A stretch of 64,000 bases of DNA from a virus (IMGVR_UViG_3300027863_001680:3306-67305), one strand, 5' to 3'; numbered from the stretch's first letter, positions 4,856-24,234 are shown. Made by a program: numbers and translations. The notes: generated by a model not told the origin, from the sequence alone.

Positions 4856-6259
4856 ATGCCATTACAGATGAAGAGCCTATGCCCTTCGGCTATTGAGGGC
4901 TCAAAGGAGATAGGACGCTGGCTTTCTCAATTCCCTGCAGAGAGCCAGAAAGCCGCCGTGTCTCTTCTCTCTCGCTTGCGATTTGTGTCACGTGACGCCT
5001 ATTCGGATTGGCTGTTGGAAAAACTTGGATACTTGGCCAAAAATGGCAAGTGCGCAGTCTATTCGGTGCGCGAAATCAAAGATCAGAACTGTCTATGGAA
5101 TGACCGCGATGAAGTCGTAGGACGCCACGGAACTTCAGAAGGAAGTGAGGATCTTGTATATTCCCTGATTGGCAATGCCGCTAGATTGTACAAGGACATG
5201 ATACTCGATCATCCAAGCCTCCACATCTTGAGGGATGAACAGGTTCACGATGTCGTTCTCTTGGACGATTCCGTAGGCAGCGGGAACAGAGTGGCCGGAT
5301 TCATTAGATTGATGATGGCTCACAAAACGTTCAGAAGTTGGTGGAGTCTTGGACTTATTAAACTCCACATTGTTTCGCTCGCCCGTACCCGCGAGTCAAA
5401 GCGGGTGATTCTCGAAGCTCTTCCTGGAAGCGATCACGGGAAAAGGAAATACCGCAAGTCAACGAAGATCGTATTCTTGAGCGATATTGTCTATGGAATG
5501 TTTTGGCTGAAAAGGCGGTGGGGGCAGCGATATCAGGACATCATTGATTTGTGTGATGGCCAGACCGCAATACCAGAGGGTCTTCGCCAAGGCTACGGAG
5601 GTGCGATGGCGAGTATTGTATTCTACCATAGCGTTCCGAATAATACGCCCGGGGTCATCTGGCGCAAAAGACGTAATTGGAAGCCGCTATTTCCGGGAAG
5701 GGCCGTCCCGGATTGGCTTCCCGCATTGCTCGATAGCTGTGAGCAACGCACGGCAAAAGTAGGACAGACGGCAGATGCTGCGCACGGGGGCATTGCGATA
5801 TTGCCAGCTGGAATGCTGGAGTTACTTTCACTGATCAGACTTGGTGTAAGGAGAACCTCAAGCCTTGCCCTACGCATGGACCTTGACGTGGAGTTCACTA
5901 AGTCAATCTTGCAGAATGCTATACATGCTGGATTTGTCTCAGAGAATGGGCGTATCACCGAGGCTGGAATTACTGCTCTGGAACGTCAAAACGCGGGTGC
6001 TATGCGTACGTTTGACCGTTCGCTGTATATACCACAATCCTGGTGTAGTGACCAGGCTTCCATTCAGCCGCCTGCTTTCGCAGAGCAGGCAGATCCTGTT
6101 GAAGTTGATACTCCAACAGGTGGGGATGCCGGACAGGTATCTCTGGAAAGAACTGACGCTACGACGACTCCGTCGTCCAGCATGGTCAGGCCCCAAGCAC
6201 CTTCGAAGTCTCGGAAGGGCCCCGACCATGATGGCCCCTTGGGCCAAAGGGAGAGGTGA
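4856..6259 (+). CDS. Retron effector: PRTase-like domain + winged HTH, with a low-complexity tail overlapping the ncRNA
   Basis: PRPP-loop motif VLLDDSVGSG; wHTH-like LLSLIRLG...GRITEAG; stop codon abuts the RT start. Confidence 0.75.
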   Translation: MPLQMKSLCPSAIEGSKEIGRWLSQFPAESQKAAVSLLSRLRFVSRDAYSDWLLEKLGYLAKNGKCAVYSVREIKDQNCLWNDRDEVVGRHGTSEGSEDLVYSLIGNAARLYKDMILDHPSLHILRDEQVHDVVLLDDSVGSGNRVAGFIRLMMAHKTFRSWWSLGLIKLHIVSLARTRESKRVILEALPGSDHGKRKYRKSTKIVFLSDIVYGMFWLKRRWGQRYQDIIDLCDGQTAIPEGLRQGYGGAMASIVFYHSVPNNTPGVIWRKRRNWKPLFPGRAVPDWLPALLDSCEQRTAKVGQTADAAHGGIAILPAGMLELLSLIRLGVRRTSSLALRMDLDVEFTKSILQNAIHAGFVSENGRITEAGITALERQNAGAMRTFDRSLYIPQSWCSDQASIQPPAFAEQADPVEVDTPTGGDAGQVSLERTDATTTPSSSMVRPQAPSKSRKGPDHDGPLGQRER

Positions 6260-6274
6260 ATGGAAGTCTGGTCA
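6049..6274 (+). ncRNA. Retron msr-msd ncRNA (predicted), embedded in the effector 3' end and RT start
   Basis: a1/a2 repeat TGACCAGGCTTCCATTCA (6049-6066) / TGAATGGAAGTCTGGTCA (6257-6274), 17/18 plus one G-U; G6067 in AGC context opposite G6256; six internal hairpins. Confidence 0.75.
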
Positions 6275-7426
6275 GTACACCAGCTCTTCGAGCAAGCAAA
6301 AGCTGATCTCGGGGTAGACAGGTCATCAGAACTGCGAAAATACGCTCAATATCTCATCCACTCGGGACTACCGGTGATCTTCTCATTGAAGCACTTGTCC
6401 AAGATCACACGAGTGAATTACGGCGTTCTTCGCGATACCGTAGGGCGCAGGAGAGAATCAGCGAACTATCGAATGTTCCCGGTGAAGAAACGGTCTGGAG
6501 GCCGGCGGTTCATCCATGCTGTTTCCGGGCAGCTATTTTCAGTGCAGCAGTTCATCAACGCCGACATTCTGCAGAACGTGGCTCCGCACACATCGTCGTT
6601 TGCTTTCCACTGGAATGGTGGAATTCAGAAATGTGCAGCAATGCATTGTGGTGCGAAGTGGCTCTTCCAGTTCGATCTGTCGGATTTCTTCTACGACATC
6701 AATGAGATCGACGTGTTCCGTATCTTCCAGCAGCTTGGATACCGGAAGCTCCTGGCGTTCGAACTGGCACGAATCTGTACTACAATACACCTACCAGCGC
6801 ATCTAAAATGCACCTTTAAGGTACATCGGTACTTCCCAGAATGTCACCCCCCATACGGAGTGTCGTACGACGCAGGAGTTCTGCCTCAAGGTGCCCCCAC
6901 CAGCCCTATGTTAAGCAATTTAGCTGCGAGGGAACTGGACGAGCGACTTTTTGAGTTTGCAGTGGCAAACGGTTTCGTCTACACTCGATACGCCGACGAT
7001 ATCACCTTGTCGGCAAGAGAACTACCAAGTAGAGTGTCTGTTGGGGATATCCATCGGCAGTCAACGCATATCATCAGAACCTGTGGATTCAGAGAGAACA
7101 AGAAGAAGACTCGTGTAGCGGGGCCAGGTTCAAGAAAGATCGTTCTCGGGTTGCTTATAGATGGTGATCAACCACGGATATCACGAGAGACGTACAATAG
7201 GATTGACCGTCACCTATATGCTGCAACAAAGTTTGGTATTGTCGAAACAGCAAGCCACGAAGGCTTTGACTCAGCTTACGGTTTCTACAATCATCTCGCA
7301 GGTCTGATATCATTTGTAAATGATGTGGATAAGAAGAGGTGGACTGAGTTCCACGCACGATTGAGTAAAATCACCGTCCCTTGGCAGACGCCATCAGGAA
7401 CGCAATATGGGGAGTTCTCGCAATAG
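6260..7426 (+). CDS. Retron-type reverse transcriptase
   Basis: FDLSDFF, LPQGAPTSPMLSN, YTRYADD; region X variant CAAMH; region Y variant VLGL. Confidence 0.92.
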   Translation: MEVWSVHQLFEQAKADLGVDRSSELRKYAQYLIHSGLPVIFSLKHLSKITRVNYGVLRDTVGRRRESANYRMFPVKKRSGGRRFIHAVSGQLFSVQQFINADILQNVAPHTSSFAFHWNGGIQKCAAMHCGAKWLFQFDLSDFFYDINEIDVFRIFQQLGYRKLLAFELARICTTIHLPAHLKCTFKVHRYFPECHPPYGVSYDAGVLPQGAPTSPMLSNLAARELDERLFEFAVANGFVYTRYADDITLSARELPSRVSVGDIHRQSTHIIRTCGFRENKKKTRVAGPGSRKIVLGLLIDGDQPRISRETYNRIDRHLYAATKFGIVETASHEGFDSAYGFYNHLAGLISFVNDVDKKRWTEFHARLSKITVPWQTPSGTQYGEFSQ

Positions 7427-8083: not shown

Positions 8084-9616
8084 GTGGAAAGCGGCACTCG
8101 AAGATCACGAACAAAGAAACCCACCAGCCAGACGACTCTTCAGGATCAGGACAGTATGCAGGCTCAGGGCATGGTCATCACACCAATGGCGACAGCCGCC
8201 ATGCTTGACTCGGCCGCGTTTGCCCGCATCAATCCCGATGATTGTGCCATTCCAAAGAACTGGGAAGAACGCGCCAAGAAAGCCTGGGAGTACTATGTCG
8301 AGGAACCGCTGGTCAAAAACTGCATCAATTCCTGGCGGACGTTCGCAGTCGGGGACGAGATAAGAATCACGAGCGACGATGATGCCGTTAAGCAGGAGGC
8401 AAATGATCTTGCCGACCGACTTGGTGTATCCGAGTTTGTGAAAGATATGGTCCTGCAACTCCTTGTAAAGGGCGATGCGGTAGGCTTCAAACGATACACC
8501 AAAGACGGCAAAGATATCGAGGAACTCACTTGTGTCAATCCGGTCTCGATCAAGGTCAAGTATGCTCAGGGGCAACTCGTCGAGGTGCAGCAGTTCCCGG
8601 AAGACAGTCCAACCGCCGGCGACGGCCTGAAGCTGCCCGTTGAACAGACACTGCATCTCAAGTGGGATGCGCCATCGTTCTCACCGCGCGGCAACTCCCT
8701 CGTTCTTCCCGCTTTCGAGTCCATTGAGCTTCTCCGGGACTATCGGCGAGCGGAGAAAGCAATCGCAAGACGCTGGGCCACGCCGTTCAGACTCATCAAG
8801 GTCGGCGGTGCGTTCGGCCAGAAAATGGTGATGCCCGACCAGAAGATGCTCGAACAGACCCGCGACACGGTTAACAAAATGGACATGAAGAGCGGGCTGG
8901 TAGTGCCCTTCTATGTCACAGTTGAGACTCATGGCACCGAGGGCCAGGTGCTTAACGTCGAGGAGAAGGTCAAAGAGGTCAAGGAAGATATAGTTGTCGC
9001 TCTCGGTCTCTCCCGGTCACTCGTTGCAGGCGACGGCCCCAACTTTGCCACGGCATCGGTGAGCATGCAGAAGATGCTCATCATGATCCGAGAGATAAAG
9101 CATGCCGCGCGCACTATCCTCGATTGGATATATGACGACTGGCTGGAGATAAGCGGACACCAGGACAAAGGCATTCAGTTTGTCTTCAACGACCTCGATC
9201 CCACGGACGCGGTAGACTTCAAGAAGCTCCTTATAGAGCTGTACGACCGCAAGCTCATAAGTCGTTCGTCTCTGCAGCTAAAGATGGATCTGGACCCAGA
9301 CACCGAGACGGCGAACCGGCAGCACGAAGGCAAGTCGGTCGATCTCCTGGATGAAAAACAGGTCAAACCAATAGTCGATATGGTAGTTGCCGGGATCATG
9401 GGCATCGAGGCGGCGCAGCAGATGCTTGGGCTAGACCCGGCGAAGAACCGACCGGGCGGTCAGGCGGCGGCAGGACTGTATTCCAGCGCGGACGTCGGCG
9501 AGATGTGCGACTCCTGTGCCTACTTCGGCGACGAGCAGAACCGGTGCGACGTCACCAAGGCCGAGACCACCTTTGACTCCCCGGCATGCCGTTTCTTTGA
9601 ACACAAGAGAGTCTGA
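8084..9616 (+). CDS. Portal protein (putative), with a C-terminal four-Cys motif
   Basis: Size (510 aa) and position between TerL and MuF; GAGGGG RBS. Confidence 0.75.
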   Translation: MESGTRRSRTKKPTSQTTLQDQDSMQAQGMVITPMATAAMLDSAAFARINPDDCAIPKNWEERAKKAWEYYVEEPLVKNCINSWRTFAVGDEIRITSDDDAVKQEANDLADRLGVSEFVKDMVLQLLVKGDAVGFKRYTKDGKDIEELTCVNPVSIKVKYAQGQLVEVQQFPEDSPTAGDGLKLPVEQTLHLKWDAPSFSPRGNSLVLPAFESIELLRDYRRAEKAIARRWATPFRLIKVGGAFGQKMVMPDQKMLEQTRDTVNKMDMKSGLVVPFYVTVETHGTEGQVLNVEEKVKEVKEDIVVALGLSRSLVAGDGPNFATASVSMQKMLIMIREIKHAARTILDWIYDDWLEISGHQDKGIQFVFNDLDPTDAVDFKKLLIELYDRKLISRSSLQLKMDLDPDTETANRQHEGKSVDLLDEKQVKPIVDMVVAGIMGIEAAQQMLGLDPAKNRPGGQAAAGLYSSADVGEMCDSCAYFGDEQNRCDVTKAETTFDSPACRFFEHKRV

Positions 9617-9625
9617 GGGCGCGCG

Positions 9626-12600
9626 ATGCAAGCATCAATATGCGCCATCGCATCGACGTCTCAGGCCCAGGCGATCCGTGAAGCCACACTAAAGAGCCTT
9701 CTTGCCCGCGATCTCTACTCCGAACAGGTCGCTCACCAACTCACGCAGTCGCTCAAGACCGCGCAGAAACAGGTCCACACGGCACTGCTTGGTTATAAGA
9801 GTCTCGGCTCGCTGCCGGATAACAAGCTCGCGGCCTTGAAGGGTCTTGAGAAGCTCGATGCCGAGATACGCGAGACAATGCGCACGCTTCGCAAGGAGCA
9901 CACATTGATGTTCCGCAATGCTTCTCGAACGGGTTTCCGCTCCGGCGTCTATCGGGGCATTGGAGAGTTCGCGGCCGCGCAGATGCCATTTTACCGCGAT
10001 CTCACGCTGGATGGGATCGACAAGCTCACCACATCGGTCTTCACTCTCATCGACACCGATGCGCTCGACTTCATGGCCAACTACAACCTGGTGCTTGTGG
10101 GTGATGTTCATCGGGAACTCTCAGACGGAATCAAGCGGACAATCCTCTCCGGTGTCGCCACGGGCAAAGGTGCGGATGACATAGTCCGTGATCTCGGCAA
10201 GGTCATCGAGGACAAGGAGTCCTTCCGGCACGCGGGAAGCAAGGTGTTTTCCAAGGCGCAGTATCGGATGGAGATGATCGCCCGCACCGAAGTCCTGCGG
10301 GCGCACAACCAAGGCCGCATCAAATTCCACCAACAAGTCGGAGTGCAGAGGCTCGAGTGGGTAGCGATGGAAGACGAGCGGATGTGCCCGGTATGCGGCG
10401 GCTTCGATGGAAAGGTCTTCGATACCGACCACTTTCCAACTCAGCCAGCACACCCAAATTGCCGCTGCACGAGTGTCGTCGCATGGCCGCTTGTGATCTG
10501 TGGCGGTGATCTCGGTGCGACCGCTGCGCCTGGTCAGAGCGCATGTATCCTGCCTCCGCAAGCGATTGAGTTCCAGGCACAGCAGAAGATCGAGGAAGAG
10601 AAGAAGCTCAAGGGCGCATTCGAGTCAGGTGAAATCTCGGACCTGGGCGCTCTTACTGTAAAGCAGCTCCAAACACTGGCAAAGCAGAATGGCGTCGCCG
10701 TTGCCCGCACCAAGTCAGACTTCATCAAACTGCTCGACCAGGCAGAGCCGGGAGTCCATCACGGTGATTTGTCGGGAGCCGCACTGCAGGCAAAGGTAAA
10801 GCAATACAACATCGCGGCGCTCAGAAGTAAGGATGAGTTGGCGACGCTTCTGGCCGAAAAGCAGGCGGCGATCAAACAGGCGAAAGCTCTGGAGGAAGCC
10901 GCGAAGAACGCCGCGCCTCAGACCGATCTGTCCGGTTTCACTATGGTCCAGCTCAAGGACATGGCCAAGCAGCATGGCGTATCACTTAACCTCACTAAAT
11001 CGGAAGTCATCGAAATGCTGGACGGTCTTGAGCCGGGTGTGAACCACTCCGGCCTTGCCGGTAAAGCCCTGATCGCCGCAAAGCAGAAGCACGGTATTCC
11101 ACCTCTGAAGAACAAAGAGCAACTCGTCAAAGCCCTCGAGAAGTCTGCTGGCCAGCAGATGGCTGAGCAGGCCAAGCAGCAGGCTCTGGATGTGGCGAAA
11201 CAAGAGGCACTCAAAAAAGCCGAGCAGACTCTCAAGGATGCTACATCGCAGATAGTAATGCCGTTTTCTCCCACGCAGTATTCCTCGTTCCTCAATTCGG
11301 TGAAAGCTGCCGAAGCGGAGCTGGCTAAAGACTCGGTTCTGCCAGCGTCGGTGCTTCAAGAGCATGCGAAAGAGATTGCGGTTAAAAAGCTCACATTCCA
11401 GCAGCAGGTTTCGGCAATGAAGTCGGGCGAGCTGAAGGACCTTGCGAAGCAGACGAAGATCAAGCATTGGCAATGGTCGTCGAAAGACGAACTGACCACG
11501 TTGTTCACGGAAACCGATCCGGCGAAGGTGTCCGCCGCGAAGGCAAGCATCGAAGCAAAGCACGCAAAGTGGGCTGAGAAGCATCTGGCGTCGCCGATCA
11601 AGACGGCACAGCCCAAGACAAAGCCAACAGCGCCACAGTCTGCTCCGCAGCCAGTCACATCGGTACCCTCAAACGCATTTACGAAGAAAGGCTTCGAGTT
11701 CGATGAGACAGACGCTGTCTGGGCGGAACACGGCAAGCCGGAGAAGTTCAAATATGTCGGCAAGGCCAATGTCGGCGGCGCACATGCAAAGGAGTTTTGG
11801 CTCGATGAAAACGGCGACAAATGGCTTTTCAAGCCGGTCGGCAAATCAGCGGACGATTTCATCGCGCACGGCGAAGAGGCCGCGTACAAGATAGGCCGTC
11901 TCATAGACCCGGATGTAATGGAGGTCAGAACGATTCGGCTCAATGGTCGAACAGGTTCCATTCAGATGTGGCGCGGTGGGCTGGCGGCAAAGTCCGACTT
12001 CTCCAGCTTCGACATTACTGAGCTTTCGGCGGATGATATTGCGCAGGTCCAGCGTGAGCATGTCATCGACTGGCTTATCTCAAATCATGACGGCCATGCC
12101 AAACAGTTTCTGCGGGCAAAAAACGGCAAAGTCTATGGTATCGACAAGGCCCAACTTTTCAAATTTCTTGGCTCTGACATGCTCTCTATCGACTACCATC
12201 CCAATGGAGCCTGCGGGGAAAGCGAGCCGTTCTACAACACGCTCTTCAGGGCAGTAAAGCAGGGCAAGATGACGGTCGACCCGTCCGTCACCCTGCGCTA
12301 TATCCGCGAGGTCGAGCGCATATCGGATGACGATTATCTGGCCATGATCCGTCCATACGTCGAGGGCAGGTTCGGACGAGACGAGATGAAGAAGAAGGCC
12401 TTTTACGATCTTGCTCTAGCCCGCAAGCACAACATGCGCAGCGACTTTGAGGGGTTCTATGCTGAAGTTCTTGGCAAGAAAGGATTCGCCTTTGAGGATG
12501 CAGCCGGGGCTCCGACAACAGGACGAATCGGGAAAGCAGAGGAACAGATCATAGAGGACGCGCGTGTCCTCGGCTGGCAGGGGAAGACTCTGCCGATAGA

Positions 12601-14203
12601 TGAGACCGACATCGAGGACCAGAATGCGCTTGTCTTCACTGAGACCATCCACGGCAAAGAGCGAACGATCATCAAGCTAAAGGTGAGGCCGGAGGCCGAG
12701 TCGAAGATGCTGCCTACGCTCAGGAAAGCCGACAGGCAGGTGGACGCGGCAAGAGTCGGGGAGCCGCTGTCGGAAGATGAGTTCGCCGACGATATCCTGC
12801 TTGCCGTGAAGACCGTGAACCACCATGCGCAGGACGGCGCTTACAACCAGTCAAAGCTGGAGAAAGCGGCAAAGCATCTCAACATGCTCAAGAAGCTCGT
12901 TGGCTCCGACGACCCGGATGTCCGCGAGATGGCGCAGGTCTACATCACATGGATAGAAAGGGTACAGCAGGCGGCCAAGGATAAGAAGCCGATCCCGGAG
13001 ATATTCGAGACCTACTTGAAGAAGTATTCACCTCCCCGGAAGCGGGTCAAAGACGCCGATTTTACCGTGCGGAAAACCAAAGCGCTCCTTACGAAGCGTA
13101 AACTCGCCGAAGGAGAACTCGCTGTAGAAGGCGAGGCGGCGAGCACTACATCGCTCTTCCGTGGAAACCCGATGCCCGATGGCGAGCAATATGAGATAGA
13201 CTTCGGAGACGGCATCCGTGCGACTTACCGACCCTGGTCGAAAAAGAACCTTTACGCCCATTCCGGTGAGCTTGAGATAACGGTCCCTGGCCGCCCGAAC
13301 GCGAAGAACTTGGAGAAAGCCCTTGAGCATATCGAGAATGTTGGACTCAAGGCAAATGTTGCCACGGCCGATGATGCTGAGATTCTTTACCTGACGAAGC
13401 AGGCTTACATTACAAAAGCGGACAGGGAAACTGGATATACCAAGATGATGACCGAACTCGACGGTCGCAATGCCGCGAAGTCTGAACGTATTCAGGCGAT
13501 GCGTTCGTTCTGGGAGAAGCAGCTTGGGGTGTCGGACATTACAAAGATGCCGGGCTATGATCCCGTGGGCGAGTATCAGCTCGGTTTCAAGGACAGCAAG
13601 ATCGCGGGAGGCTACAGGCATCAATACAGATTCGACATCTCCGACAAGGACTTGGAGAAGCAGATGGCTGGTTACAGCCTGTTTCATAACCTGACCAACA
13701 ACTCGAACATGAGCACATTCCTCGATAACGCGCTCGAGAACAACGGCGCAATGATAAGCACTGTGGAGAAGCTTCGTTCTGGAGTTACTCCGGGCGGTAT
13801 GTCGCCGGAAGCGGACATGCGAAGCGGCGGCGCGTCTTATGTGTTCACCAGAATTCGTAAGTCCCCACTTTCGGGCAGCACTGGTGAGTGCGGGCTATAT
13901 TTCAAGAAACGGCTTCTGCGTAGAATGGACAGTGTCAGCTATTCGCACGACGCTTACGGCAAGGTGACAGACGACTATGTGGCTGAGCATCGGGGTATCG
14001 GTCCATCGGACTGGAAGCAGTTCTCAAGGGGAAGCAGCAACGAGACTATCTTCAAGTATTCGATTACGCTGCTCGATAACCTGGAGGCGGTGGTCGTATC
14101 GAGTGAGTCGGAGCGGGCGAAGGTAATCGAAGTGTTCGCGAAACATGGTATATCCAGCCTGCCTGATGGTCGTAAGGTCGGGGAAGCTGTTCTGGTGAGG
14201 TGA
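9626..14203 (+). CDS. MuF (SPP1 gp7-like) head morphogenesis protein with HeH repeats, a HipA/PI4K-like kinase and a putative ART-like C-terminal domain
   Basis: MuF motifs IARTE, CPVC, HPNCRC; repeats TVKQLQTLAKQNGV / TMVQLKDMAKQHGV; kinase motifs WLFKP, GEEAAY, DWLISNHDGH, GID; C-terminal LFH, GGASYVF, NETIF. Confidence 0.8.
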   Translation: MQASICAIASTSQAQAIREATLKSLLARDLYSEQVAHQLTQSLKTAQKQVHTALLGYKSLGSLPDNKLAALKGLEKLDAEIRETMRTLRKEHTLMFRNASRTGFRSGVYRGIGEFAAAQMPFYRDLTLDGIDKLTTSVFTLIDTDALDFMANYNLVLVGDVHRELSDGIKRTILSGVATGKGADDIVRDLGKVIEDKESFRHAGSKVFSKAQYRMEMIARTEVLRAHNQGRIKFHQQVGVQRLEWVAMEDERMCPVCGGFDGKVFDTDHFPTQPAHPNCRCTSVVAWPLVICGGDLGATAAPGQSACILPPQAIEFQAQQKIEEEKKLKGAFESGEISDLGALTVKQLQTLAKQNGVAVARTKSDFIKLLDQAEPGVHHGDLSGAALQAKVKQYNIAALRSKDELATLLAEKQAAIKQAKALEEAAKNAAPQTDLSGFTMVQLKDMAKQHGVSLNLTKSEVIEMLDGLEPGVNHSGLAGKALIAAKQKHGIPPLKNKEQLVKALEKSAGQQMAEQAKQQALDVAKQEALKKAEQTLKDATSQIVMPFSPTQYSSFLNSVKAAEAELAKDSVLPASVLQEHAKEIAVKKLTFQQQVSAMKSGELKDLAKQTKIKHWQWSSKDELTTLFTETDPAKVSAAKASIEAKHAKWAEKHLASPIKTAQPKTKPTAPQSAPQPVTSVPSNAFTKKGFEFDETDAVWAEHGKPEKFKYVGKANVGGAHAKEFWLDENGDKWLFKPVGKSADDFIAHGEEAAYKIGRLIDPDVMEVRTIRLNGRTGSIQMWRGGLAAKSDFSSFDITELSADDIAQVQREHVIDWLISNHDGHAKQFLRAKNGKVYGIDKAQLFKFLGSDMLSIDYHPNGACGESEPFYNTLFRAVKQGKMTVDPSVTLRYIREVERISDDDYLAMIRPYVEGRFGRDEMKKKAFYDLALARKHNMRSDFEGFYAEVLGKKGFAFEDAAGAPTTGRIGKAEEQIIEDARVLGWQGKTLPIDETDIEDQNALVFTETIHGKERTIIKLKVRPEAESKMLPTLRKADRQVDAARVGEPLSEDEFADDILLAVKTVNHHAQDGAYNQSKLEKAAKHLNMLKKLVGSDDPDVREMAQVYITWIERVQQAAKDKKPIPEIFETYLKKYSPPRKRVKDADFTVRKTKALLTKRKLAEGELAVEGEAASTTSLFRGNPMPDGEQYEIDFGDGIRATYRPWSKKNLYAHSGELEITVPGRPNAKNLEKALEHIENVGLKANVATADDAEILYLTKQAYITKADRETGYTKMMTELDGRNAAKSERIQAMRSFWEKQLGVSDITKMPGYDPVGEYQLGFKDSKIAGGYRHQYRFDISDKDLEKQMAGYSLFHNLTNNSNMSTFLDNALENNGAMISTVEKLRSGVTPGGMSPEADMRSGGASYVFTRIRKSPLSGSTGECGLYFKKRLLRRMDSVSYSHDAYGKVTDDYVAEHRGIGPSDWKQFSRGSSNETIFKYSITLLDNLEAVVVSSESERAKVIEVFAKHGISSLPDGRKVGEAVLVR

Positions 14204-14682
14204 TGATGATAGAGTTCATAGCAGATGAAAAGGCAAAGCTGCAGGCCCTGTTCGACGAGTTCAACCGCGACGGGTCGCTCATGGTAATGCGCGAAGGACG
14301 CGATACTCCCCTGCCATTCGGCCTGATAGACAGCTACATCGTCACGCGGGTTGCGCCACACTTCGACGCAGCCGGGGCCGTCACGAAGACGGACTTCTGG
14401 CTTATGTTCAAGTCCGTAGGATACAACAACGGCTTCCAATATGCGCACACGATCAAGGCCGTGGACTGGGGCCGGGAGGACACATACGAGCTTGACCTCA
14501 TCGACGATCTGAGCCGCAGGTATCATATCGAACTTATCATGGACGCCACCGAGCACGATTATGTGATCGCCTGGGGCAAGTGGCAGCGATACAAGGCCGA
14601 AAACAGGTCCGAGTTCGATGTGATCGATGCCCAGCTTTTTGAGGAACACACAAAGATCGCGGAGGCGTGGGATGCGGCTTAG
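14200..14682 (+). CDS. Hypothetical protein, candidate immunity protein 1 for the MuF toxin
   Basis: Acidic 160 aa; start overlaps the MuF stop (GTGA). Confidence 0.55.
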   Translation: MMMIEFIADEKAKLQALFDEFNRDGSLMVMREGRDTPLPFGLIDSYIVTRVAPHFDAAGAVTKTDFWLMFKSVGYNNGFQYAHTIKAVDWGREDTYELDLIDDLSRRYHIELIMDATEHDYVIAWGKWQRYKAENRSEFDVIDAQLFEEHTKIAEAWDAA

Positions 14683-15064
14683 GTATATGATTGAGTATGC
14701 GCTCCGCAACCGTGACACCGATCCGCACTACGAACCGATAGGCGTCTGGGTGCAGGGGCTGGGTCCAGGGCTGGACATCGTGATGGAATACCTGCCGGGC
14801 AACGACGAGTTCCAGGAAGAAGCCGACTGGGTCATCAATCGGCTGGTGGAGAACGATATCAAGTCACTGCCCGATGACTTCCTCGAGTACCACCGGGCGA
14901 CGATGTCGCCATATCGCGGGATGCGGGGAGAGATAGTGGAGACAGAGGAGTGCACCTCTGCAGAGGTCTGTGCTGCCTCGGTCCTGCGGACAATTCGCCC
15001 TATTTTACCTAACCTATCTCGCAAGCCCAACGTACGTTCTATTGATCTTCAGGGCAGGACTTAA
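14672..15064 (+). CDS. Hypothetical protein, candidate immunity protein 2
   Basis: ATG at 14672 after GGAGG; overlaps the previous gene. Confidence 0.55.
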   Translation: MRLRYMIEYALRNRDTDPHYEPIGVWVQGLGPGLDIVMEYLPGNDEFQEEADWVINRLVENDIKSLPDDFLEYHRATMSPYRGMRGEIVETEECTSAEVCAASVLRTIRPILPNLSRKPNVRSIDLQGRT

Positions 15065-15305: not shown

Positions 15306-15944
15306 TCAGTCCGAGTGGTGGCAGACAAGAAGAATATGGTATATCGTAATAGAGGTACCATCATTCCGCGTGTGCTCGCTTACCCACTCATGCTCTAATC
15401 CTGGATCGATAGTGATTTGAGAAAGGCTCTCGACCGTATTAAGTACGCCAGTAGTGTCTGACTGGAACCTTCTGGATAGCTCGCCATACCACCGGTCAGG
15501 CTTATGGCTCTGTACATAGCCTACCATACCAGCGACCTTGCAGTCACTGGCATACTTGCCTTGGATGAAGCAAAGCAGACCCTCTGCTCCCATATAATCC
15601 CCTATGGGGTGACCAGGTACTTTCAACCTCTTGGCCTCGAAGACAAAATGGGGACGTGGACAGCCAAAGCTGCATTCCACAAGGATGTCAATCTCTCTCC
15701 TCCGTTTCCCTAATCGCTCGCCATTCTGCACTGGCGAGGTTTCTGTTATGAAGTACCGCGGGAACTGGCCTAAGTCTTGTCGAGCCTTAATCGCTTGCAC
15801 CACAAGGCCGGTTATGTCCTCTTCCTCGTGGTTGTCGGTGATTTGCGCGCGCACATCAGCGTAGCCAAGAGCCAGAAGCTGGTGCACATCTCTCATAAAC
15901 CTTCTGTTGTAGCTTCGCCATCGGGGGGCCAGCCGCGCACTCAC
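15306..15944 (-). CDS. PD-(D/E)xK restriction-endonuclease-like protein
   Basis: EEDIT...REIDI...FEAKRL motif; 4-bp overlap with the methylase stop. Confidence 0.7.
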   Translation of the reverse strand: MSARLAPRWRSYNRRFMRDVHQLLALGYADVRAQITDNHEEEDITGLVVQAIKARQDLGQFPRYFITETSPVQNGERLGKRRREIDILVECSFGCPRPHFVFEAKRLKVPGHPIGDYMGAEGLLCFIQGKYASDCKVAGMVGYVQSHKPDRWYGELSRRFQSDTTGVLNTVESLSQITIDPGLEHEWVSEHTRNDGTSITIYHILLVCHHSD

Positions 15945-18900
15945 TCCTCACCCCCTGGTTGTGCCAGAACCTCGGCAATAACATCATCCGAGTCGAGAAG
16001 TGCTTGAGTTTCGGTCCAATCGATCAGCCGCGGCGCTTTCATTATGTGCACGGCATCACCATCGAAGAAGTACAATGACCGCTGCACGTACACCCACTGA
16101 CTCCGCTCTTGCCCCAAGGCTTCCCACAAGTCCTTATGTGAGTCGGTTATCTCGTCTCCTTCCTCCTCAACAACTAGCATACGATCATCGCTGGCATTGC
16201 CCAGACGCACGGTGCAGAGCGTGAGCTCTCGTGCCTGGTTGATCCTGGCAACGTGCCGCTCACCGGAGAACTCATCCAGCTCTTTTAACAAGCGCGCTGC
16301 GTATCGTTCGAGTTCCGCCGGTTTCGGCGGACGCACCACGGAGCCAGGCACCTTGCCTTGGTTCAGCTGGTACCTAACCTGCATGAACTCACGCGCCACG
16401 ACGCTTATCTCTTCAGGCACATCCAGCACCCTCTCGACCGCATCATCTATCGCTGCTTGCATATCCGGTGCCTCTCCCACTAGCATACCTTGTGCTGGCG
16501 CCATCTCGTCAGCCGCCATCTCGCGGTGCAGGAGCGCCAACTCATTGATCTGCTCGTCGGACATGACCGGCACTGGAATCTCCTTGGTTTCATTGAGCCC
16601 TACGGAACTAACGAATACTCCCCACGAAGAGCTGTGGAAGAAGAGCAGATACTTGGTCAGACTTGAGTTCAATACGAGCGACAAAGCCCGAAGATGATCT
16701 GCGTCTTTCTCTGGCACTGCCAATCCGATATGCGGATGACTCAAAACGAAATTTGCATCACTATACGCTGCGAACTTGATGTCAAAGAACATGTGCGGGG
16801 CCCTAGCTACGTCCAATCCTGCTCGCCGTCCTTTGCGCACATGATGCAACGCTGTTGGTATCTCCTTCAGAACCCCAGGTGGCACCGTCAGAACGTATCC
16901 CGACTGCCGCATCCCCTTTGTGTCCAAGAGCTTGAGATCCGCCAGTTCCGACACTGGCTCTGTTGTACGCTTCTTAGGATCCGGTTCAAAGTCTTCCTCA
17001 CGTAGCTGGAGTCCAAGCCGGATACGCCAATTGCGGTCTTTACATAGACCCTCCAGAGTTATCGGGAACAGCGTCCTCAGCCGGGCTATCGCCTTTCTGT
17101 CTCGGTACGTCCCCCACAGGGCAAGTTTCCAGGTTTCCGCATCTCCTGTTTCAGCATCTGAATGCTTGATCGCCTGTATCTCGTTTTCGTACACCGTGAT
17201 CAGCCATGCTCGCTTGCCCTTTGTCTGCGTGGCCAGTGTGGCCACTTGGTTCGCCGCAATTGGTCCATAATGAGTGATGGATGGCTTGTCACTGCGGCCA
17301 TCTGCAACAGAGTACACTAGAGTAGCCGCTGGCAGTCGTGCCCTCTTCTCAAACAACACTTCGAACAGGTTTGCGAAGTTCGTTACTGACGCCACCGAGT
17401 GGGCTTCAAAGAACCTCCTGCGGAACTCAGCGCAGTGATCGTTTGTTAGCGTCTTGGCGGGAATCACAAGACCTGCGCAACCATCAGGCTCCAGCACATC
17501 CGTTGCGTGCCATGCAAACGCATCGGATGTTCTATACCGGCTTATGGGGCGATTCTGATCTTTGGCATCTTCCATCCACTTCAGGATAGGCGCTTCACGG
17601 ATGGCTTCCATCTCGTTGTCGGGTTCGAGTTCCTTCCAGGGCGGGTTTCCCACGACCCAATGAAAGCGCAGCCCGCTCTGCCAAAACTCGCAGGTCGGAT
17701 CAAAGAAATCGCAGGCGAATATGTTTTTGTTATGCAGTACTGGGAACCTGAAGTCTTTGTTTGCGTGAAGATCGGGCGGTTCTACGTAGCTTAAGAGGGT
17801 AAGAAGCAAGCTTAGCTCAGCGACATAGCAGGCATCCGGGTTACGTTCTACCCCATAGATGCTCTTCTGCAGCAGGAGCTTCAGCTCATCTGCAGTCAAG
17901 TCCCTGTCCAAGCGGCACATCTCTCTAGAGATCAGCCCGCGATATGCGAGCACCAGGAACACTCCTGATCCACAGCATGGGTCTAGGACTCGCATTCCCA
18001 GCGCTAGCGGGTTGGCCCCGTTCAATTCGGAGATTAAATAGTCGGCCAGAGGTTCCGGCGTATAGTAAGCTCCCGCAGCTCTGTTCGTCTCCTCTCGGCG
18101 CAGGAACTGCTCATAGATGAGGGACAGGGTTTCCACTGGTATGTGGGAGAAGTTGTAAACCTTGAAGTCAAATGCAAGCTGTCCACCGGCTTGATCACCC
18201 TGGAATACAGACGCAACGAAAGCTATTGCTGAGTCGTCAACTGTGTCAGTCTCTTCCAACGGGAATATTTGGCCATTGAATCGGCTCTCCAGAGCTTCAA
18301 CCAAGGCTACGAGACCATCTCGGGTAGCATCCTTGCTCAGCACTAGATTGATGTCCAGGTTGTTCTCGCCCAGCCATTTGTCCGACAGAATGCCCCTATG
18401 ACGCAAGTAGCTGATGTACGTGTACTTGCCTATGAGTGCGTGAGCAACCCTCGGGGGCAGGTGTCTCTCAAAGACCAACTTGTCGCCGAGTTCGTTCAGG
18501 TTCCTCAGCAACTGGTGATCGACGCGGGTGTCTGTTCTTACATTGTGCGCCTGTGCCTGCCATATTCTGCCCGAGTCGATCTCTGCCCGGTAGAAACACG
18601 CCAGAGCCGTGCGAACCATGCTGGTGGTCACATCGTCGAGGCTCTCGATGAGCTCCGCGTTCTCGTCATCCTGGTTGTACCCAAAACCTCTATAAACCCT
18701 GACCTTGCCCGGGAGGAGCACAATGAGAAATGGGGCAGTCCCGAGGTTCCACACATTCCTGTGGATTCTGCGCGCATCGTATTCGTCGGTTGCCTCGGCA
18801 ACGTATACCACGGGTCGCGGCGACAGCTTGGGCACGCCTTCCATTGGCGGGCTGGTGCTAAGGAGGTATATCCCTTTGACGCCCGCGTTCTTGGCTGCCC

Positions 18901-19063
18901 TCAGGAGGTGATCTGTGCGTTGCTCGCCCCCCTCCAGTGCTATCCAATTGCTACCTGCTTCGGTGTAACCAAGCTGTTCTACTAATTCCCCTAGCCGCAC
19001 TTCGTTACCCTGTCCTTTTCGCCAAGTAGCCGCAAGATCCAACGCGCAGACTAGTTCTGGCAC
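15941..19063 (-). CDS. Large N6-adenine DNA methyltransferase (Eco57I/type IIG-like architecture, probable C-terminal target-recognition region)
   Basis: YYTP, motif I VLDPCCGSGVFL, motif IV VVGNPPW. Confidence 0.88.
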   Translation of the reverse strand: MPELVCALDLAATWRKGQGNEVRLGELVEQLGYTEAGSNWIALEGGEQRTDHLLRAAKNAGVKGIYLLSTSPPMEGVPKLSPRPVVYVAEATDEYDARRIHRNVWNLGTAPFLIVLLPGKVRVYRGFGYNQDDENAELIESLDDVTTSMVRTALACFYRAEIDSGRIWQAQAHNVRTDTRVDHQLLRNLNELGDKLVFERHLPPRVAHALIGKYTYISYLRHRGILSDKWLGENNLDINLVLSKDATRDGLVALVEALESRFNGQIFPLEETDTVDDSAIAFVASVFQGDQAGGQLAFDFKVYNFSHIPVETLSLIYEQFLRREETNRAAGAYYTPEPLADYLISELNGANPLALGMRVLDPCCGSGVFLVLAYRGLISREMCRLDRDLTADELKLLLQKSIYGVERNPDACYVAELSLLLTLLSYVEPPDLHANKDFRFPVLHNKNIFACDFFDPTCEFWQSGLRFHWVVGNPPWKELEPDNEMEAIREAPILKWMEDAKDQNRPISRYRTSDAFAWHATDVLEPDGCAGLVIPAKTLTNDHCAEFRRRFFEAHSVASVTNFANLFEVLFEKRARLPAATLVYSVADGRSDKPSITHYGPIAANQVATLATQTKGKRAWLITVYENEIQAIKHSDAETGDAETWKLALWGTYRDRKAIARLRTLFPITLEGLCKDRNWRIRLGLQLREEDFEPDPKKRTTEPVSELADLKLLDTKGMRQSGYVLTVPPGVLKEIPTALHHVRKGRRAGLDVARAPHMFFDIKFAAYSDANFVLSHPHIGLAVPEKDADHLRALSLVLNSSLTKYLLFFHSSSWGVFVSSVGLNETKEIPVPVMSDEQINELALLHREMAADEMAPAQGMLVGEAPDMQAAIDDAVERVLDVPEEISVVAREFMQVRYQLNQGKVPGSVVRPPKPAELERYAARLLKELDEFSGERHVARINQARELTLCTVRLGNASDDRMLVVEEEGDEITDSHKDLWEALGQERSQWVYVQRSLYFFDGDAVHIMKAPRLIDWTETQALLDSDDVIAEVLAQPGGEE

Positions 19064-19231
19064 ATCCGCAGTGCGAGATCTCCAGAACGCCCGCTCACCA
19101 AACTGTATTACAAAGGCCCTCTCGTTGTCAAGTCTGAGCTTGGGTGGTTCAATGGATGGCCTTTTCCAGCATATCGGCTCTGAACTCTGAGAGCTCAGAC
19201 CCAGCCGCCAGTCGATCTCGCGATATCCTCA

Positions 19232-20023
19232 TTACTCGTCCCAGTGCCTCTCGACTATGAAGTCCGGAACAACCAAGTTCCAGTCAGAGAGGAACTTGTT
19301 GCTGCCCTTATACGACCGCTCAAGGTAGTGAGGTGATTTCGGACACCGGGCCTTGAGGCGTTCGAGGTGTGAAGGATCGACCATTAGCTGCTCGCGATGC
19401 TGATCCAGGAAGAACCCGACCTTGGCGGCAGTCGTGGCGTTTTCCAGCAGTTCGACATATTCGACTATCTTGTCCAGGTGGTAGTAGTCGACCATCTCCA
19501 GTGATCGCCAGACCTCTTCCCAGCTACCCGAGAATTCCGGCCTCTGCAACACGTCCGCCATGGTACGCTCCAGACTGGTGACACGCAGCGTTTCCCCATG
19601 GGATTCAGCTTCCTCAACGGCGAACATTTCCTGCTTCTTGACAAGCAGCGCACGCGGAAACAGCACTGCCTTGAACACTTGTCCCTCGTACTCGAACGAG
19701 TTGACGCGCGAGCGAGAGCAGCAGACGTAGTCGTTTCGCACAGTGTAGGCTTTGCCGTGGAACTGCATCGCCGTGTGATACGCGAGAACTGCGTCGGGAG
19801 CCATCTTCGCGCATATCAGATAAGGATCGGCAACCACAGGTCGCCCGGGAGGCGCGCTTAGGTAGAGCCCTTTTCGCACCGGCTTGACCCTTCCGGTGCG
19901 AATGTAGTACTTGAGCAACGCCCTTCGACTGGCCACCTTTACCGGGTGCTCACGGGAGCAGAAATCGTCAAACTCCCGCACGTCGAATACCGTCTTCCTG
20001 TTCAGAAACGCTTGAGTCTTCAT
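19232..20023 (-). CDS. AbiEi-family (type IV TA) antitoxin / transcriptional regulator, with no adjacent toxin
   Basis: N-terminal wHTH (GRVKPVRKGLY), LAYHTAMQFHG, VTSLERTMAD. Confidence 0.82.
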   Translation of the reverse strand: MKTQAFLNRKTVFDVREFDDFCSREHPVKVASRRALLKYYIRTGRVKPVRKGLYLSAPPGRPVVADPYLICAKMAPDAVLAYHTAMQFHGKAYTVRNDYVCCSRSRVNSFEYEGQVFKAVLFPRALLVKKQEMFAVEEAESHGETLRVTSLERTMADVLQRPEFSGSWEEVWRSLEMVDYYHLDKIVEYVELLENATTAAKVGFFLDQHREQLMVDPSHLERLKARCPKSPHYLERSYKGSNKFLSDWNLVVPDFIVERHWDE

Positions 20024-20296: not shown

Positions 20297-20329
20297 TTTC
20301 ACCACTCCGCATGTGTCTCCGGTAAATAT
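20297..20329 (+). promoter_or_regulatory. Putative late promoter, copy 2 (TTTCACCACT-N11-TCCGGTAAATAT)
   Basis: Conserved 33-bp motif upstream of the head operon. Confidence 0.65.
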
Positions 20330-20385
20330 TGGAGAGGCAGTTTCCAGGCTTACCTGGACGCCTCGACACCGGACCGGAGATACGG

Positions 20386-23300: not shown

Positions 23301-24234
23301 CAGGGTCGAGTGCGCGGGCGAACTATATGTGGCGGACACACCTACAGCCGCGCTTGCCCACAAACTCATGAAGAAGGGCGTCATCTCACAGGTCTCGATG
23401 GAGTGCGACTACGAAGCCGGCGAGTGTTCCATTTGCGGCAAGATGGTGACCAACAAGAACGATTACTGCATCCATCTTCGCAAGTTCAAAGGCGCGGAAT
23501 ACCAGGGCAAGCCGGTCTTCGAGATCCTGCACGGCGTTACGTTTACCGGGTTGGGTCTTCTCGACCGCAAAGGCGCCGACGAAAATGCGCGAATAACACA
23601 AGTCGCCTCGCAAGAGGCGAGGCAAACCGATCCCACAGACAAAGGAGGCAGCTCAGTGGAAGACGACAAGAAAGAGACCGACGAGCAGCGCGAAGAGGCT
23701 GCGAAGAAAAAGGACGCCCCGGGCGGCGGCGCTGCGCCTGCGGACGACAAGGCCCGCGTAAAGGAGCTTGAGGACGAGAACAAACAGCTCAAGCAGCAGG
23801 TGTTGGACCTCCAACAGCAGGTTCAGGAGCTTGAGGCGGCAAGTAAGGCCGCCGCAAACAAAGCACGGGCCGCGAAGCTCGTCGCCAAGATCGAGAAATC
23901 CGGAATGACTTTTGCCTCCGACGAGGAGCGTGAGAAGGAACTCGGGAGGCTTGTGGAGCTTTCAGATGATGCGTTCGCTGCAACCGAAGCCGCCTACGAG
24001 CGCGCCATGCAGGCCAAGTCCGCAAACTCCAAGACTGAGACATCGACGAAAGACTCTGAGGAAAAGCCCGACACAAAGGCGGCAGAGTCGAAGAGGCAGA
24101 TGCGCACCGATGCCGGTGTGCGGCCCCTGGATGTGGATGACACGAAGACGAGCCTTGAGGACAAGCTCAAGGATGGCTTCATGATCGCCTACCGCGAGCG
24201 TGTGGGTCTTGCGGATTCAGGCAAGAGCGACTAA
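20386..24234 (+). CDS. Fusion of two D12-class (Dam/FokI-like) adenine methyltransferases, a prohead protease and a scaffold coiled coil
   Basis: ATG at 20386 after GGAGA; NYIGSK/DAFSG/DPPY, then FMGNK/DAFSG/DPPY; protease-like DLKH, VSMEC, CSICG, FTGLGL; E/K/A-rich tail directly before the capsid genes. Confidence 0.82.
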   Translation: MELFATDLERLAFLLETDASCYLEDLVAQGTELVTEELPPDERPKYITNYIGSKQKLVDWIWKHTPEGVSSVLDAFSGSAVVAYMYKSKGMRVVANDRMHYCHHAARAIIENSSVRITQEELDALLADNPKAGTFVRDNFKGLFFSEGVHKIIDVIRANVDALSGCKKDIALFALGKTCMSGKGGFGHFSSSTDYGKRQDTPEEFKERFADNVARINALIFDNGKECKAYRKDINDMLAEVKVDLAYFDPPYATEFSTTNYEKSYHFVEGLMTYWDGLTLVGDSKTHHYETDHKTVTKANAKEFFSTFLSSAKHIPNWLISYRDHAYPNEDEMKEIISASGMSSRMQSQQHHYHISSRHSENSQAMERLFICSKAGEMKQAASLCPMCSKMQTQAEWDESENEIRYRVRDPEQFEQESFRHKALDGVDGVSIIIGRLKKEFTPEGHDPKAMVVQAYRFARKTEQNPDGWTLEKAQKWIEEHEPQASEAETRIEENMWALADAPLSDEMDLLSCQAGMDPVRVTGFMGNKYMMLGWIERQVPKEAKTLVDAFSGGANVAYHFKRKGMKVVANDLLLYPYHIARAVVENSHEVLTDEDIERILAPNSNAGSFIVDNFHGYYYTKKVLAWLDQVWANIQKLPGYKKDLALAVLGNTVKAKSLYGQFHRSKLNLKADANIETDAGVKENQLVNLPVSSLVESFKRYASQINKLVFDNGQECKAFHGDAVEAVRKFGGDVLYLDPPYITEFSNNDYEYSLHFVEGLMNRWADKTLLDDNRRSYKSRTHYDRDSIRSLIENLASEARGKYGTVIMSYRDHAFPTEKEIRDIFAERLGNVRVRGMDVEYNIVLGKEGGGSSGRELLFISSKSESAPKSTAAALPGNCHTSIPVEVRLEASAQLSASAIDINPNAGDPQFSFIMCRAGTNKNGDHFTPEELSTRCTTAINKKIDLKHSQDLTDIVGGIIAAEFVEDETGGRVECAGELYVADTPTAALAHKLMKKGVISQVSMECDYEAGECSICGKMVTNKNDYCIHLRKFKGAEYQGKPVFEILHGVTFTGLGLLDRKGADENARITQVASQEARQTDPTDKGGSSVEDDKKETDEQREEAAKKKDAPGGGAAPADDKARVKELEDENKQLKQQVLDLQQQVQELEAASKAAANKARAAKLVAKIEKSGMTFASDEEREKELGRLVELSDDAFAATEAAYERAMQAKSANSKTETSTKDSEEKPDTKAAESKRQMRTDAGVRPLDVDDTKTSLEDKLKDGFMIAYRERVGLADSGKSD

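Follow-up and report, generated by a model that had tools for sequence, protein, structure and literature searches.

The window analysed here, a stretch of 64,000 nucleotides of viral DNA, contains a giant gene (9626..14203, + strand) whose 1,525-aa product, P0001, begins as a phage head protein and ends in two enzyme-like domains, which raises the question of what such enzymes would do in a head protein and on what they would act. The gene is a single uninterrupted ORF in which MuF, HeH, kinase and ADP-ribosyltransferase (ART) parts are joined between the portal and capsid genes. Its ATG, with GAGGG upstream, lies 9 nt past the stop codon of the portal gene (8084..9616, + strand; phrog_2739 portal, E 3.6e-64, with weak matches to Pfam Portal_Mu and Phage_portal), and this adjacency was kept in all complete related loci. 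P0001 matched phrog_6577, a PHROG without functional label, over aa 47-1372 (E 2.7e-219). The MuF/SPP1 gp7 domain was assigned to aa 168-282 (10127..10471, + strand), where Phage_Mu_F (PF04233) scored 61.6 bits against a cut-off of 29.6 and TIGR01641 scored 66.1 bits against 39.65; Cys254, Cys257, Cys279 and Cys281 were invariant columns in the orthologue alignment (A1). With a profile above the curated cut-off and a gene located right after the portal gene, P0001 is a member of the MuF/SPP1 gp7 family. As at least two effector-type domains occur in one polypeptide encoded among virion genes, it is also a polyvalent protein. The preliminary description, in which the MuF core extended to about 10490, agreed with these and the following coordinates within about 40 nt.

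The MuF domain is followed by two HeH-type repeats, at aa 337-414 (10634..10867, + strand) and aa 432-508 (10919..11149, + strand), and by a third, single HeH-like motif at aa 599-633 (11420..11524, + strand). The two repeats aligned to each other with a local score of 155, compared with 27 +/- 5 (maximum 55) in 500 shuffles, and the third motif scored 57 against repeat 1, compared with 24 +/- 5 (maximum 47). Each repeat of about 75 aa consists of two helix-extended-helix-like halves (score 44, shuffles 19 +/- 4). Repeat 1 generated matches to phrog_3281 and, weakly, to Pfam SAP at aa 331-374, and repeat 2 generated matches to phrog_2250, phrog_2724 and Rho_N, the last at aa 434-463 and below cut-off (E 2.9e-4). 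Thus, the repeat scores bear out the two repeats and the third HeH/SAP-like motif proposed previously.

An atypical protein-kinase-like domain was delimited at aa 686-965 (11681..12520, + strand) from an AlphaFold2 model, Foldseek, VIA-align and conserved residues. The model of aa 685-1140 (pLDDT 80.9) showed a protein-kinase-like fold, and all 500 of the 500 Foldseek matches listed were kinases. In VIA-align, PI4K-II alpha (4hnd) was closest (Z 15.5, rmsd 3.7, 234 aa), followed by CtkA (3akj, Z 13.8), Fam20 (13.5), MavQ (12.1) and HipA (4pu3, 10.6), so that the kinase fold of HipA/PI4K type read earlier from the sequence was recovered by structure prediction. The model places the domain in the bilobal, atypical PI3/4K-HipA-CtkA group of the protein-kinase-like superfamily. 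Membership in the HipA (PF07804) or PI3_PI4_kinase (PF00454) sequence families was considered and rejected: HipA_C scored 17.2 bits (cut-off 30.5) and covered only 29 residues, and the domain was therefore filed under the same fold class and not as a member of either family. The putative catalytic set comprises K736, E751, D822 and D840 (in GID), whose roles as ATP-binding Lys, helix-C Glu, catalytic-loop Asp and metal-binding Asp were assigned from motif order rather than superposition. K736, E751, D815, W816, N820, H821, D822, H824, G838 and D840 were invariant in 27 orthologues with 49-84% identity, and the motifs WLFKP, GEEAAY, DWLISNHDGH and GID noted previously were all present with their key residues. 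The catalytic loop, NHDGHAKQ, adds Q827 to this putative set, at a position where HipA-type loops carry N and where N occurred in only two divergent members, a point that counts against the effector reading proposed below. With its key residues invariant, the kinase is probably active.

The C-terminal end (aa 1336-1525; 13631..14200, + strand) was predicted to adopt a DarT-like ART fold (AlphaFold2 model of aa 1141-1525, pLDDT 86.2, pTM 0.82). The seven best solved matches in VIA-align were all DarT (8baq DarT1, Z 8.4, rmsd 3.2, 158 aa; 7omw, 8.3; 7omu, 7.8-7.9; 7yk3, 7.4), with Z 7.4-8.4, rmsd 3.0-3.5 and 144-158 aa aligned, values around 8 being ones that, as the tool warns, can reflect merely a common arrangement. 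The next ARTs were SopF (Z 5.3) and Tpt1 (Z 4.9), and DarT also gave the top Foldseek matches (E 5e-3). With a kinase and an ART fold both predicted, the two fold calls withstood the refuting condition that the preliminary description had set for them. The conserved residues were H1354, R1384, S1393, D1397, Y1405, R1409, D1435, D1442 and E1473; among 142 module representatives with 32-73% identity, H1354 was kept in 95%, R1384 in 95-99%, and Y1405 and E1473 each in 99%, and the previously noted motifs LFH, GGASYVFT and NETIF were found with these key residues. The order H1354...R1384...Y1405...E1473 would correspond to that of the DarT catalytic residues H, R (R51/R52), Y (in DarT2) and E, E1473 being placed by alignment and the other residues by order and predicted secondary structure; the R1384-Y1405 spacing is 21, compared with 20 for R51-Y71 in DarT2 (PMC11543638). 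As judged from its conserved residues, the transferase is probably active.

Membership in the DarT family at the sequence level was rejected. A search of the whole record with the DarT profile PF14487 (E up to 10) yielded no match, as did one of 21 diverse module sequences, and hhalign against 13 DarT sequences, which set E1473 on the DarT catalytic Glu, was marginal (score 20.7, P 0.025, 47 columns; maximum of 40 column shuffles 18.1). Neither a Macro or NADAR partner (at E up to 1) nor an ADP-ribosyl hydrolase was found in the 67-kb record. Thus the earlier likening to DarT stands for the fold and the motif order, and falls for the sequence family and the partner; by modelled structure and motif order only, DarT is the nearest solved relative. 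DarT, the toxin of DarTG toxin-antitoxin systems, is the best structural match, but this ART shows no significant sequence similarity to it and has no DarG or NADAR neighbour; it closes a phage head protein of 1,525 aa, in which a helical bundle comes before it.

Three further domains link the two putative enzymes: a conserved mid domain with a long beta-hairpin and helices in the model (aa 966-1140; 12521..13045, + strand), a beta-rich domain with structural matches only at Z 4 or lower (aa 1141-1245; 13046..13360, + strand), and the modelled helical bundle (aa 1246-1335; 13361..13630, + strand). Of 113 long carriers of the ART module, 83 had the mid domain, in each case located between the kinase and the ART, and 56 had the beta-rich domain (phmmer); the helical bundle likewise accompanied the ART part in 83 of the 113. 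Orthologues align end to end, and the domain order kinase-mid-beta-helical-ART is fixed. The C-terminal approximately 840 aa, comprising the kinase, the three domains and the ART, are therefore one conserved cassette. The C-terminal module was constant across 991 protein clusters, in which no part of the family varied less than the last 300 aa, and variation is located upstream of the module, between MuF and the cassette. Because of this, the polymorphic C-terminal toxin frame in which the protein had been placed does not fit.

Two small genes are coupled to the giant gene. The first (14203..14682, + strand; about 159 aa), whose start overlaps the MuF gene stop, is a candidate partner or immunity protein; it was kept after the MuF gene in nearly all related loci (36-84% identity) and generated no match in Pfam, PHROG, PDB or Atlas. 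The second (14672..15064, + strand; 130 aa), a candidate second partner, starts at MRLRYM, a start fixed from orthologues, and overlaps the stop of the first; it was kept in related loci with 38-87% identity. Neither gene matched a known family. Both accompany the cassette into unrelated phage backbones: the first gene's family directly follows the giant gene in the distant phages L097 (E 4e-14), L098 (8e-26) and L182 (3e-45), and the second was found in L098 (4e-26) and L182 (3e-34), which carry the kinase, but not after P0157, which lacks it. Three distant phages are the basis for assigning partner genes to particular domains; five others had a coupled small ORF without detectable homology to the partner genes.

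Taken together, we consider it fairly probable that P0001 is a "polyvalent" effector located inside the head of a temperate tailed phage, and that it is packaged, held on DNA, injected, active on the host and silenced by its partner genes. Packaging, tethering, delivery at injection and toxicity are proposed by analogy with SPP1 gp7, Bxa, Apk2 and T4 Alt. As for SPP1 gp7, the MuF/gp7 domain would position a small number of copies at the portal on the capsid interior, and the five HeH motifs would tether them to the packaged DNA; at infection, the protein would leave the capsid along with the DNA. The kinase and the ART would then phosphorylate and ADP-ribosylate host targets, either protein or nucleic acid, so that the cell is taken over or its defences are blunted. 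In the producing cell, the two coupled genes would most likely silence the cassette enzymes, as Bsi and BAH do for Bxa.

As a general idea, effectors that are MuF-fused or polyvalent are already known. Phage polyvalent proteins (Iyer, Burroughs, Anand, de Souza, Aravind 2017, PMC5512222; Iyer et al. 2022, PMC9503650) share with P0001 a large multi-domain protein encoded in the head-gene cluster, with MuF as the capsid-targeting part, and their ART and kinase domains were, as here, proposed to be injected effectors. Their ARTs, however, are of the Tox-ART-HYD2/N4-ART (H-Y-D) or Alt/VIP2 (R-S-E) types, whereas that of P0001 is H-Y-E and closest to DarT, and their kinase is an S/T/Y kinase without C-lobe, whereas that of P0001 is PI4K-II/HipA-like with a helical C-lobe. 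In P0001, moreover, kinase and ART are joined in a cassette of fixed order that is accompanied by partner genes. Precedents also exist for MuF-fused enzymes next to two immunity genes and for injected head ARTs (PMC11699363, PMC5576092, PMC5512222).

The MuF polymorphic toxins Bxa (an ART, with immunity proteins Bsi and BAH) and Apk2 (a (p)ppApp synthetase) (Jamet et al. 2017, PMC5576092; Alexei et al. 2024, PMC11699363) suggest another reading, in which P0001 serves inter-bacterial competition, is released at lysis or delivered by virions, and kills non-lysogens while the downstream immunity genes protect lysogens. The N-terminal MuF domain, the temperate phage and the two small coupled ORFs directly downstream are traits of such systems, and the orthologues are prophages in complete chromosomes. 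We nevertheless regard this reading as unlikely. Polymorphic toxins, including Bxa and Apk2, vary C-terminally between close relatives, whereas in this family the C-terminal module stays constant and proteins from different phyla share 47-87% identity over their whole length; one immunity protein of those systems is a recognisable hydrolase, unlike either partner here. With only a few molecules per virion, the weapon would be weak, and lysogens would be immune only if the partner genes, which lie in the late operon, were expressed in the prophage.

It is quite improbable, in our estimation, that the enzymes serve the phage's own particle or genome, for example by ADP-ribosylating or phosphorylating phage DNA ends or head proteins at assembly or entry for anti-restriction or end protection. 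The structural neighbours of the ART also include Tpt1, an enzyme that attaches ADP-ribose to nucleic-acid phosphate groups, and the HeH motifs point to contact with DNA. P0001 could act alongside another product of this head operon (20329-24234), a giant double DNA methyltransferase with a scaffold-like part that is conserved in relatives, and DarT enzymes modify DNA bases (PMC11543638). However, the DarT substrate is single-stranded DNA, NAD+ and ATP are not expected inside the capsid, the kinase resembles protein and lipid kinases rather than polynucleotide kinases, and the inhibitor-like partner genes suggest an activity harmful to the producer.

That both folds are catalytically dead scaffolds of an internal head or ejection protein, providing bulk, portal plugging or channel formation, would agree with the lack of a sequence-level match to any characterised enzyme family and with the large internal proteins without enzymatic roles of other phages, but is very improbable, since the kinase K, E, D and D and the ART H-Y-E, R1384, S1393, D1397, D1435 and D1442 are 95-100% conserved across sequences about 35% identical overall, a pattern typical of active sites rather than scaffolds.

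The reading of P0001 as an injected effector concerns a large family: more than 100 full-length relatives showed 47-87% identity, and full-length orthologues (47-84% identity) were located in prophages of at least 11 bacterial phyla; Desulfosarcina widdelii PP31 and Ectothiorhodospira shaposhnikovii DSM 243 are among the carriers of orthologues. The kinase-ART pair is therefore widespread, and our literature search found no published study of it, nor a study on Pan1 or virion proteomics for any carrier of the cassette. Among 50,697 records, Pseudanabaena phage Pan1 was the only isolated phage with the ART module. Its gp15 ("head morphogenesis protein") combines MuF with the same C-terminal module (31-32% identity over about 300 aa, E 3e-37), including the helical bundle and, weakly, the mid domain; it differs in its length of 927 aa, the absence of the kinase and an unrelated downstream gene.

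The same kinase was joined to a different, R-S-E type ART in 12 mycobacteriophage records. In McProf gp54 and Onyinye gp16, a homologous kinase (27-33% identity, E to 2e-35) belongs to a large protein of the head region with an ART at its end as well, but there the ART is ADPrib_exo_Tox (PF03496), VG15 takes the place of PF04233 at the N-terminus, HeH repeats are absent and the downstream gene is unrelated. These fusions are a second, independent kinase-ART pairing. Viral structural neighbours of the P0001 ART included IIV6 422L and betabaculovirus ORF30/ORF32, which may belong to the arthropod-virus ORF28 family called DarT-related previously (PMC9503650).

The gene for the MuF protein occupies positions 9626-14203 of the window on the plus strand as an uninterrupted ORF of 1,525 aa, starting 9 nt beyond the end of the portal gene (phrog_2739, E = 3.6e-64). 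It is followed by two small coupled genes and a giant methyltransferase-scaffold-like gene, beyond which a 120-aa ORF precedes the major head gene. The record in IMG/VR is linear and 67,305 bp long, and CheckV estimated its completeness at 47% even though it includes terminase, portal and head genes along with other late genes. The elements that the preliminary description had listed in this gene, namely a MuF core, HeH/SAP-like repeats, a kinase and a C-terminal domain recalling DarT, were all found, each where it had been placed. Phage_Mu_F in Pfam matched aa 168-282 with 61.6 bits (cut-off 29.6), TIGR01641 (SPP1 gp7) scored 66.1 bits (cut-off 39.65), and the ortholog alignment revealed four invariant cysteines within the MuF domain. 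The repeats at aa 337-414 and aa 432-508 scored 155 against each other (27 +/- 5 in 500 shuffles); each is built of two HeH-like halves, so that the further HeH motif at aa 599-633 is the fifth. The same stretches generated weak Rho_N and SAP matches and several PHROG matches, and precomputed matches to Rho_N or SAP exist for some of the orthologues. From the known behaviour of HeH, SAP and Rho_N domains, the HeH motifs are expected to bind DNA.

The kinase was modelled with AlphaFold2 (aa 685-1140, built on 27 orthologues, mean pLDDT 80.9). All 500 of the matches listed by Foldseek in the PDB were kinases. In VIA-align comparison with representatives, PI4K-II alpha ranked first (4hnd, Z 15.5, rmsd 3.7 A, 234 residues), followed by CtkA (Z 13.8), Fam20 (Z 13.5) and MavQ (Z 12.1), and then by PI3K/PIKK enzymes, actin-fragmin kinase and HipA at Z 10-11. 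K736 (WLFKP), E751 (GEEAAY), N820, H821, D822 and H824 (NHDGH) and D840 (GID) are invariant, and Q827 is replaced by N in two divergent members. In P0113 and P0116, which diverge most among the aligned full-length members, the catalytic loop at aa 826-827 changes from HAKQ to HAEN, so that Lys-Gln becomes Glu-Asn with both residues swapping together. Curated kinase profiles stayed below their cut-offs (HipA_C, 17.2 bits against 30.5), which excludes membership of the HipA family; for the same reason the domain was assigned to a fold class rather than to the PI4K-II or HipA family. It was therefore classed as an atypical kinase, probably active, with a fold in the PI4K-II/HipA class. No named family in Pfam, NCBIfam or PHROGs covered the kinase or the ART part, PDB sequence searches with the single protein and with a 27-sequence profile returned no match, and aa 966-1335 yielded no credible fold among the Foldseek and VIA-align matches listed.

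The model of the C-terminal part (aa 1141-1525; pLDDT 86.2, pTM 0.82) had DarT as its best PDB matches in Foldseek (E = 5e-3, probability 1.0). Two VIA-align runs agreed on the ranking, with all matches spanning aa 1336-1525: DarT1 was best (8baq, Z 8.4, rmsd 3.2, 158 residues), followed by 7omw (Z 8.3), 7omu (Z 7.8-7.9) and 7yk3 (Z 7.4), with SopF (Z 5.3), Tpt1 (Z 4.9) and OspC3 (Z 4.6) lower. Among predicted viral structures, the neighbours were giant-virus ORFans, iridovirus 422L and betabaculovirus ORF30/32; 422L and ORF30/32 are possible members of the arthropod-virus ORF28 family, which has been termed DarT-related (PMC9503650). Across 142 representatives with 32-73% identity, H1354, R1384, Y1405 and E1473 are kept in 95-99%, and S1393, D1397, G1401, R1409, D1435 and D1442 in 98-100%. 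The residues used by DarT2 are an H-Y-E set together with R51, and those of DarT1 are R52, D54 and E152 (PMC11543638). The candidate counterparts in the ART module stand in the same order, with an R-to-Y spacing of 21 (20 in DarT2); E1473 is placed by an alignment, and H1354, R1384 and Y1405 are matched by order and predicted secondary structure. The Pfam DarT model PF14487 matched nowhere in the 67-kb record and none of 21 diverse module sequences, and global hhalign failed to align the module with DarT. A local hhalign against 13 DarT sequences drawn from 400 genomes gave a marginal score of 20.7 (P = 0.025; maximum of 40 column shuffles, 18.1) that sets E1473 on the catalytic Glu of DarT. 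At the sequence level the link to DarT is not significant, and membership of the DarT family was rejected because the curated profile of the family did not match. Judged from the model, the module is an H-Y-E ART, probably active, whose nearest solved relative is DarT. Neither a Macro nor a NADAR gene is present in the 67-kb record.

When aa 1229-1525 served as the query of an exhaustive search, representatives of 991 clusters were obtained at E up to 1e-3 (250 at 1e-30), and in almost all of them the module sits at the extreme C-terminus of a protein of 900-3,200 aa. Sampled carriers have an N-terminal MuF and differing middles (HipA-like, Zeta-toxin kinase, DUF3626). Of 113 long carriers, 53 contained the kinase and 83 the mid domain by single-sequence phmmer, and the order was invariably kinase, mid, beta, helical, ART. 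The preliminary description had noted that MuF proteins can carry polymorphic C-terminal toxins; for this protein that reading was rejected because of the constant C-terminus, as a family constant at both ends is the reverse of a polymorphic toxin. The two ends are thus the constant parts, and the cassette (kinase through ART) behaves as a unit. In a set of 50,697 phage records, gp15 of Pseudanabaena phage Pan1, on which we found no paper, was the sole carrier of the ART module, and the kinase occurred only in 12 mycobacteriophage records. The mycobacteriophage proteins also combine kinase and ART in one polypeptide, but their ART is of the unrelated ADPrib_exo_Tox type; these two independent pairings suggest that kinase and ART act together. 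A profile scan of viral contigs with a diverse module alignment recovered the close lineage only (55-83% identity). In P0145, a 1,783-aa protein of a marine phage (L098:4001-9352), the cassette lies mid-protein, with the ART at aa 990-1178 followed by 600 residues.

The MuF stop codon is overlapped by the start of orf160 (14203..14682, +), whose own stop is overlapped by the true start of orf130 at 14672 (MRLRYM...; 14672..15064, +). Nearly all of the 77 related loci have these two genes after MuF. The orf160 family also directly follows the giant gene in three distant phages with other capsid types, L097 (E = 4e-14), L098 (8e-26) and L182 (3e-45). The orf130 family is present in L098 and L182, whose giant proteins carry the kinase, and was not found after P0157, a kinase-less giant protein. 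In another five carriers, a small ORF is coupled to the giant gene but no homology was detected for it; the genes downstream of Pan1 gp15, McProf gp54 and Onyinye gp16 are not homologous to orf160 or orf130. In this small sample, the pattern fits dedicated partners of the cassette, perhaps one per enzyme; Bxa with Bsi/BAH and the partner pair of Apk2 are precedents (PMC11699363). Neither orf160 nor orf130 matched a known family in Pfam or PHROGs or any entry in the ESM Atlas, and the PDB profile search with orf160 gave only noise. At the P0145 locus, the orf160 homologue forms the C-terminal half of a 283-aa protein. McProf gp55 (L002:5138-5506) and Onyinye gp17 (L094:7511-7909), which follow kinase-ART genes, share an HPVGRLW motif with each other but show no resemblance to orf160 or orf130, and may form a distinct family of partners for the mycobacteriophage cassette.

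The best-supported reading is a MuF-anchored, DNA-associated two-enzyme effector that would be packed in the head, released into the host together with the phage DNA, and held inactive in the producing cell by its two partners. We infer packaging and delivery from SPP1 gp7 and from proposals of packaged or injected MuF-type effectors (PMC5576092, PMC5512222). The idea of such an effector is already known; no paper was found on the kinase-ART cassette, none joining MuF with DarT or HipA, and no virion proteomics for any carrier of the module.

DarT is known as a weapon of bacteria against phages. A more specific and rather unlikely proposal is that the phage turns a DarT-like enzyme to offence, the head-packaged, HeH-tethered protein ADP-ribosylating host ssDNA or another nucleic acid on entry, for example at replication forks or on the DNA or RNA of defence systems. 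The kinase, obligatorily linked to the transferase, would share its substrate or prime that substrate, for instance if phosphorylation came first and the phosphate was then ADP-ribosylated in the manner of Tpt1; if true, this would amount to a hitherto undescribed pathway of nucleic-acid modification. Here, a DarT-like fold is joined to an atypical kinase in a head protein of a phage, conserved across about a thousand protein clusters and among prophages from at least 11 phyla. Should the effector be delivered with the DNA, it would rank among the most widespread enzyme pairs that tailed phages inject.

When one genome per species was scanned, 171 loci were found. Orthologues of full length (47-84% identity) occur in prophages of at least 11 phyla: Armatimonadota, Desulfobacterota, Acidobacteriota, Chloroflexota, Planctomycetota, Nitrospirota, Verrucomicrobiota, Pseudomonadota, Zixibacteria, Hydrogenedentota and Sumerlaeota. 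One Bryobacterales chromosome (Acidobacteriota) carries four copies. Complete chromosomes and cultured strains are among the carriers; since cultured lysogens exist, packaging and activity, as well as targets and immunity, can be tested directly. Related loci share the order TerL, portal, MuF, orf160, orf130, a variable segment, methyltransferase/scaffold, orf120 and capsid. The head module (window 2721-25486) is highly alike in loci L003-L079 across prophages of at least 11 phyla, with identities of 67-92% (mostly 78-92%) for the major head protein, 64-84% for TerL and mostly 56-85% for the portal, which is unusual in a temperate phage lineage. Its carriers with complete chromosomes include Desulfosarcina, Armatimonadota, Terriglobia, Bryobacterales (four copies), Zixibacteria and Gammaproteobacteria.

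Just upstream of the head gene, the 1,301-aa methyltransferase-scaffold gene (window 20329-24234), kept in relatives at 46-80% identity, has two stretches matched by the D12-class adenine methyltransferase model of Pfam (best at aa 69-285) and phrog_27806 over aa 538-1293; a DNA methyltransferase joined into a head-assembly gene suggests a second packaged enzyme. Between TerL and portal, a retron-like pair (window 4856-7426), consisting of a PRTase-CE/wHTH gene and a reverse transcriptase, had no counterpart among the 77 related loci and is an insertion specific to the window. A minus-strand methylase cassette (window 15306-20023), comprising a 212-aa ORF, a 1,040-aa N6_Mtase/Eco57I/MmeI-like gene and a 263-aa ORF, is missing from all relatives, save four weak matches to the 263-aa ORF at other places. 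The slot that it occupies, from orf130 to the methyltransferase-scaffold gene, differs widely in length among relatives and looks like a cargo hot spot.
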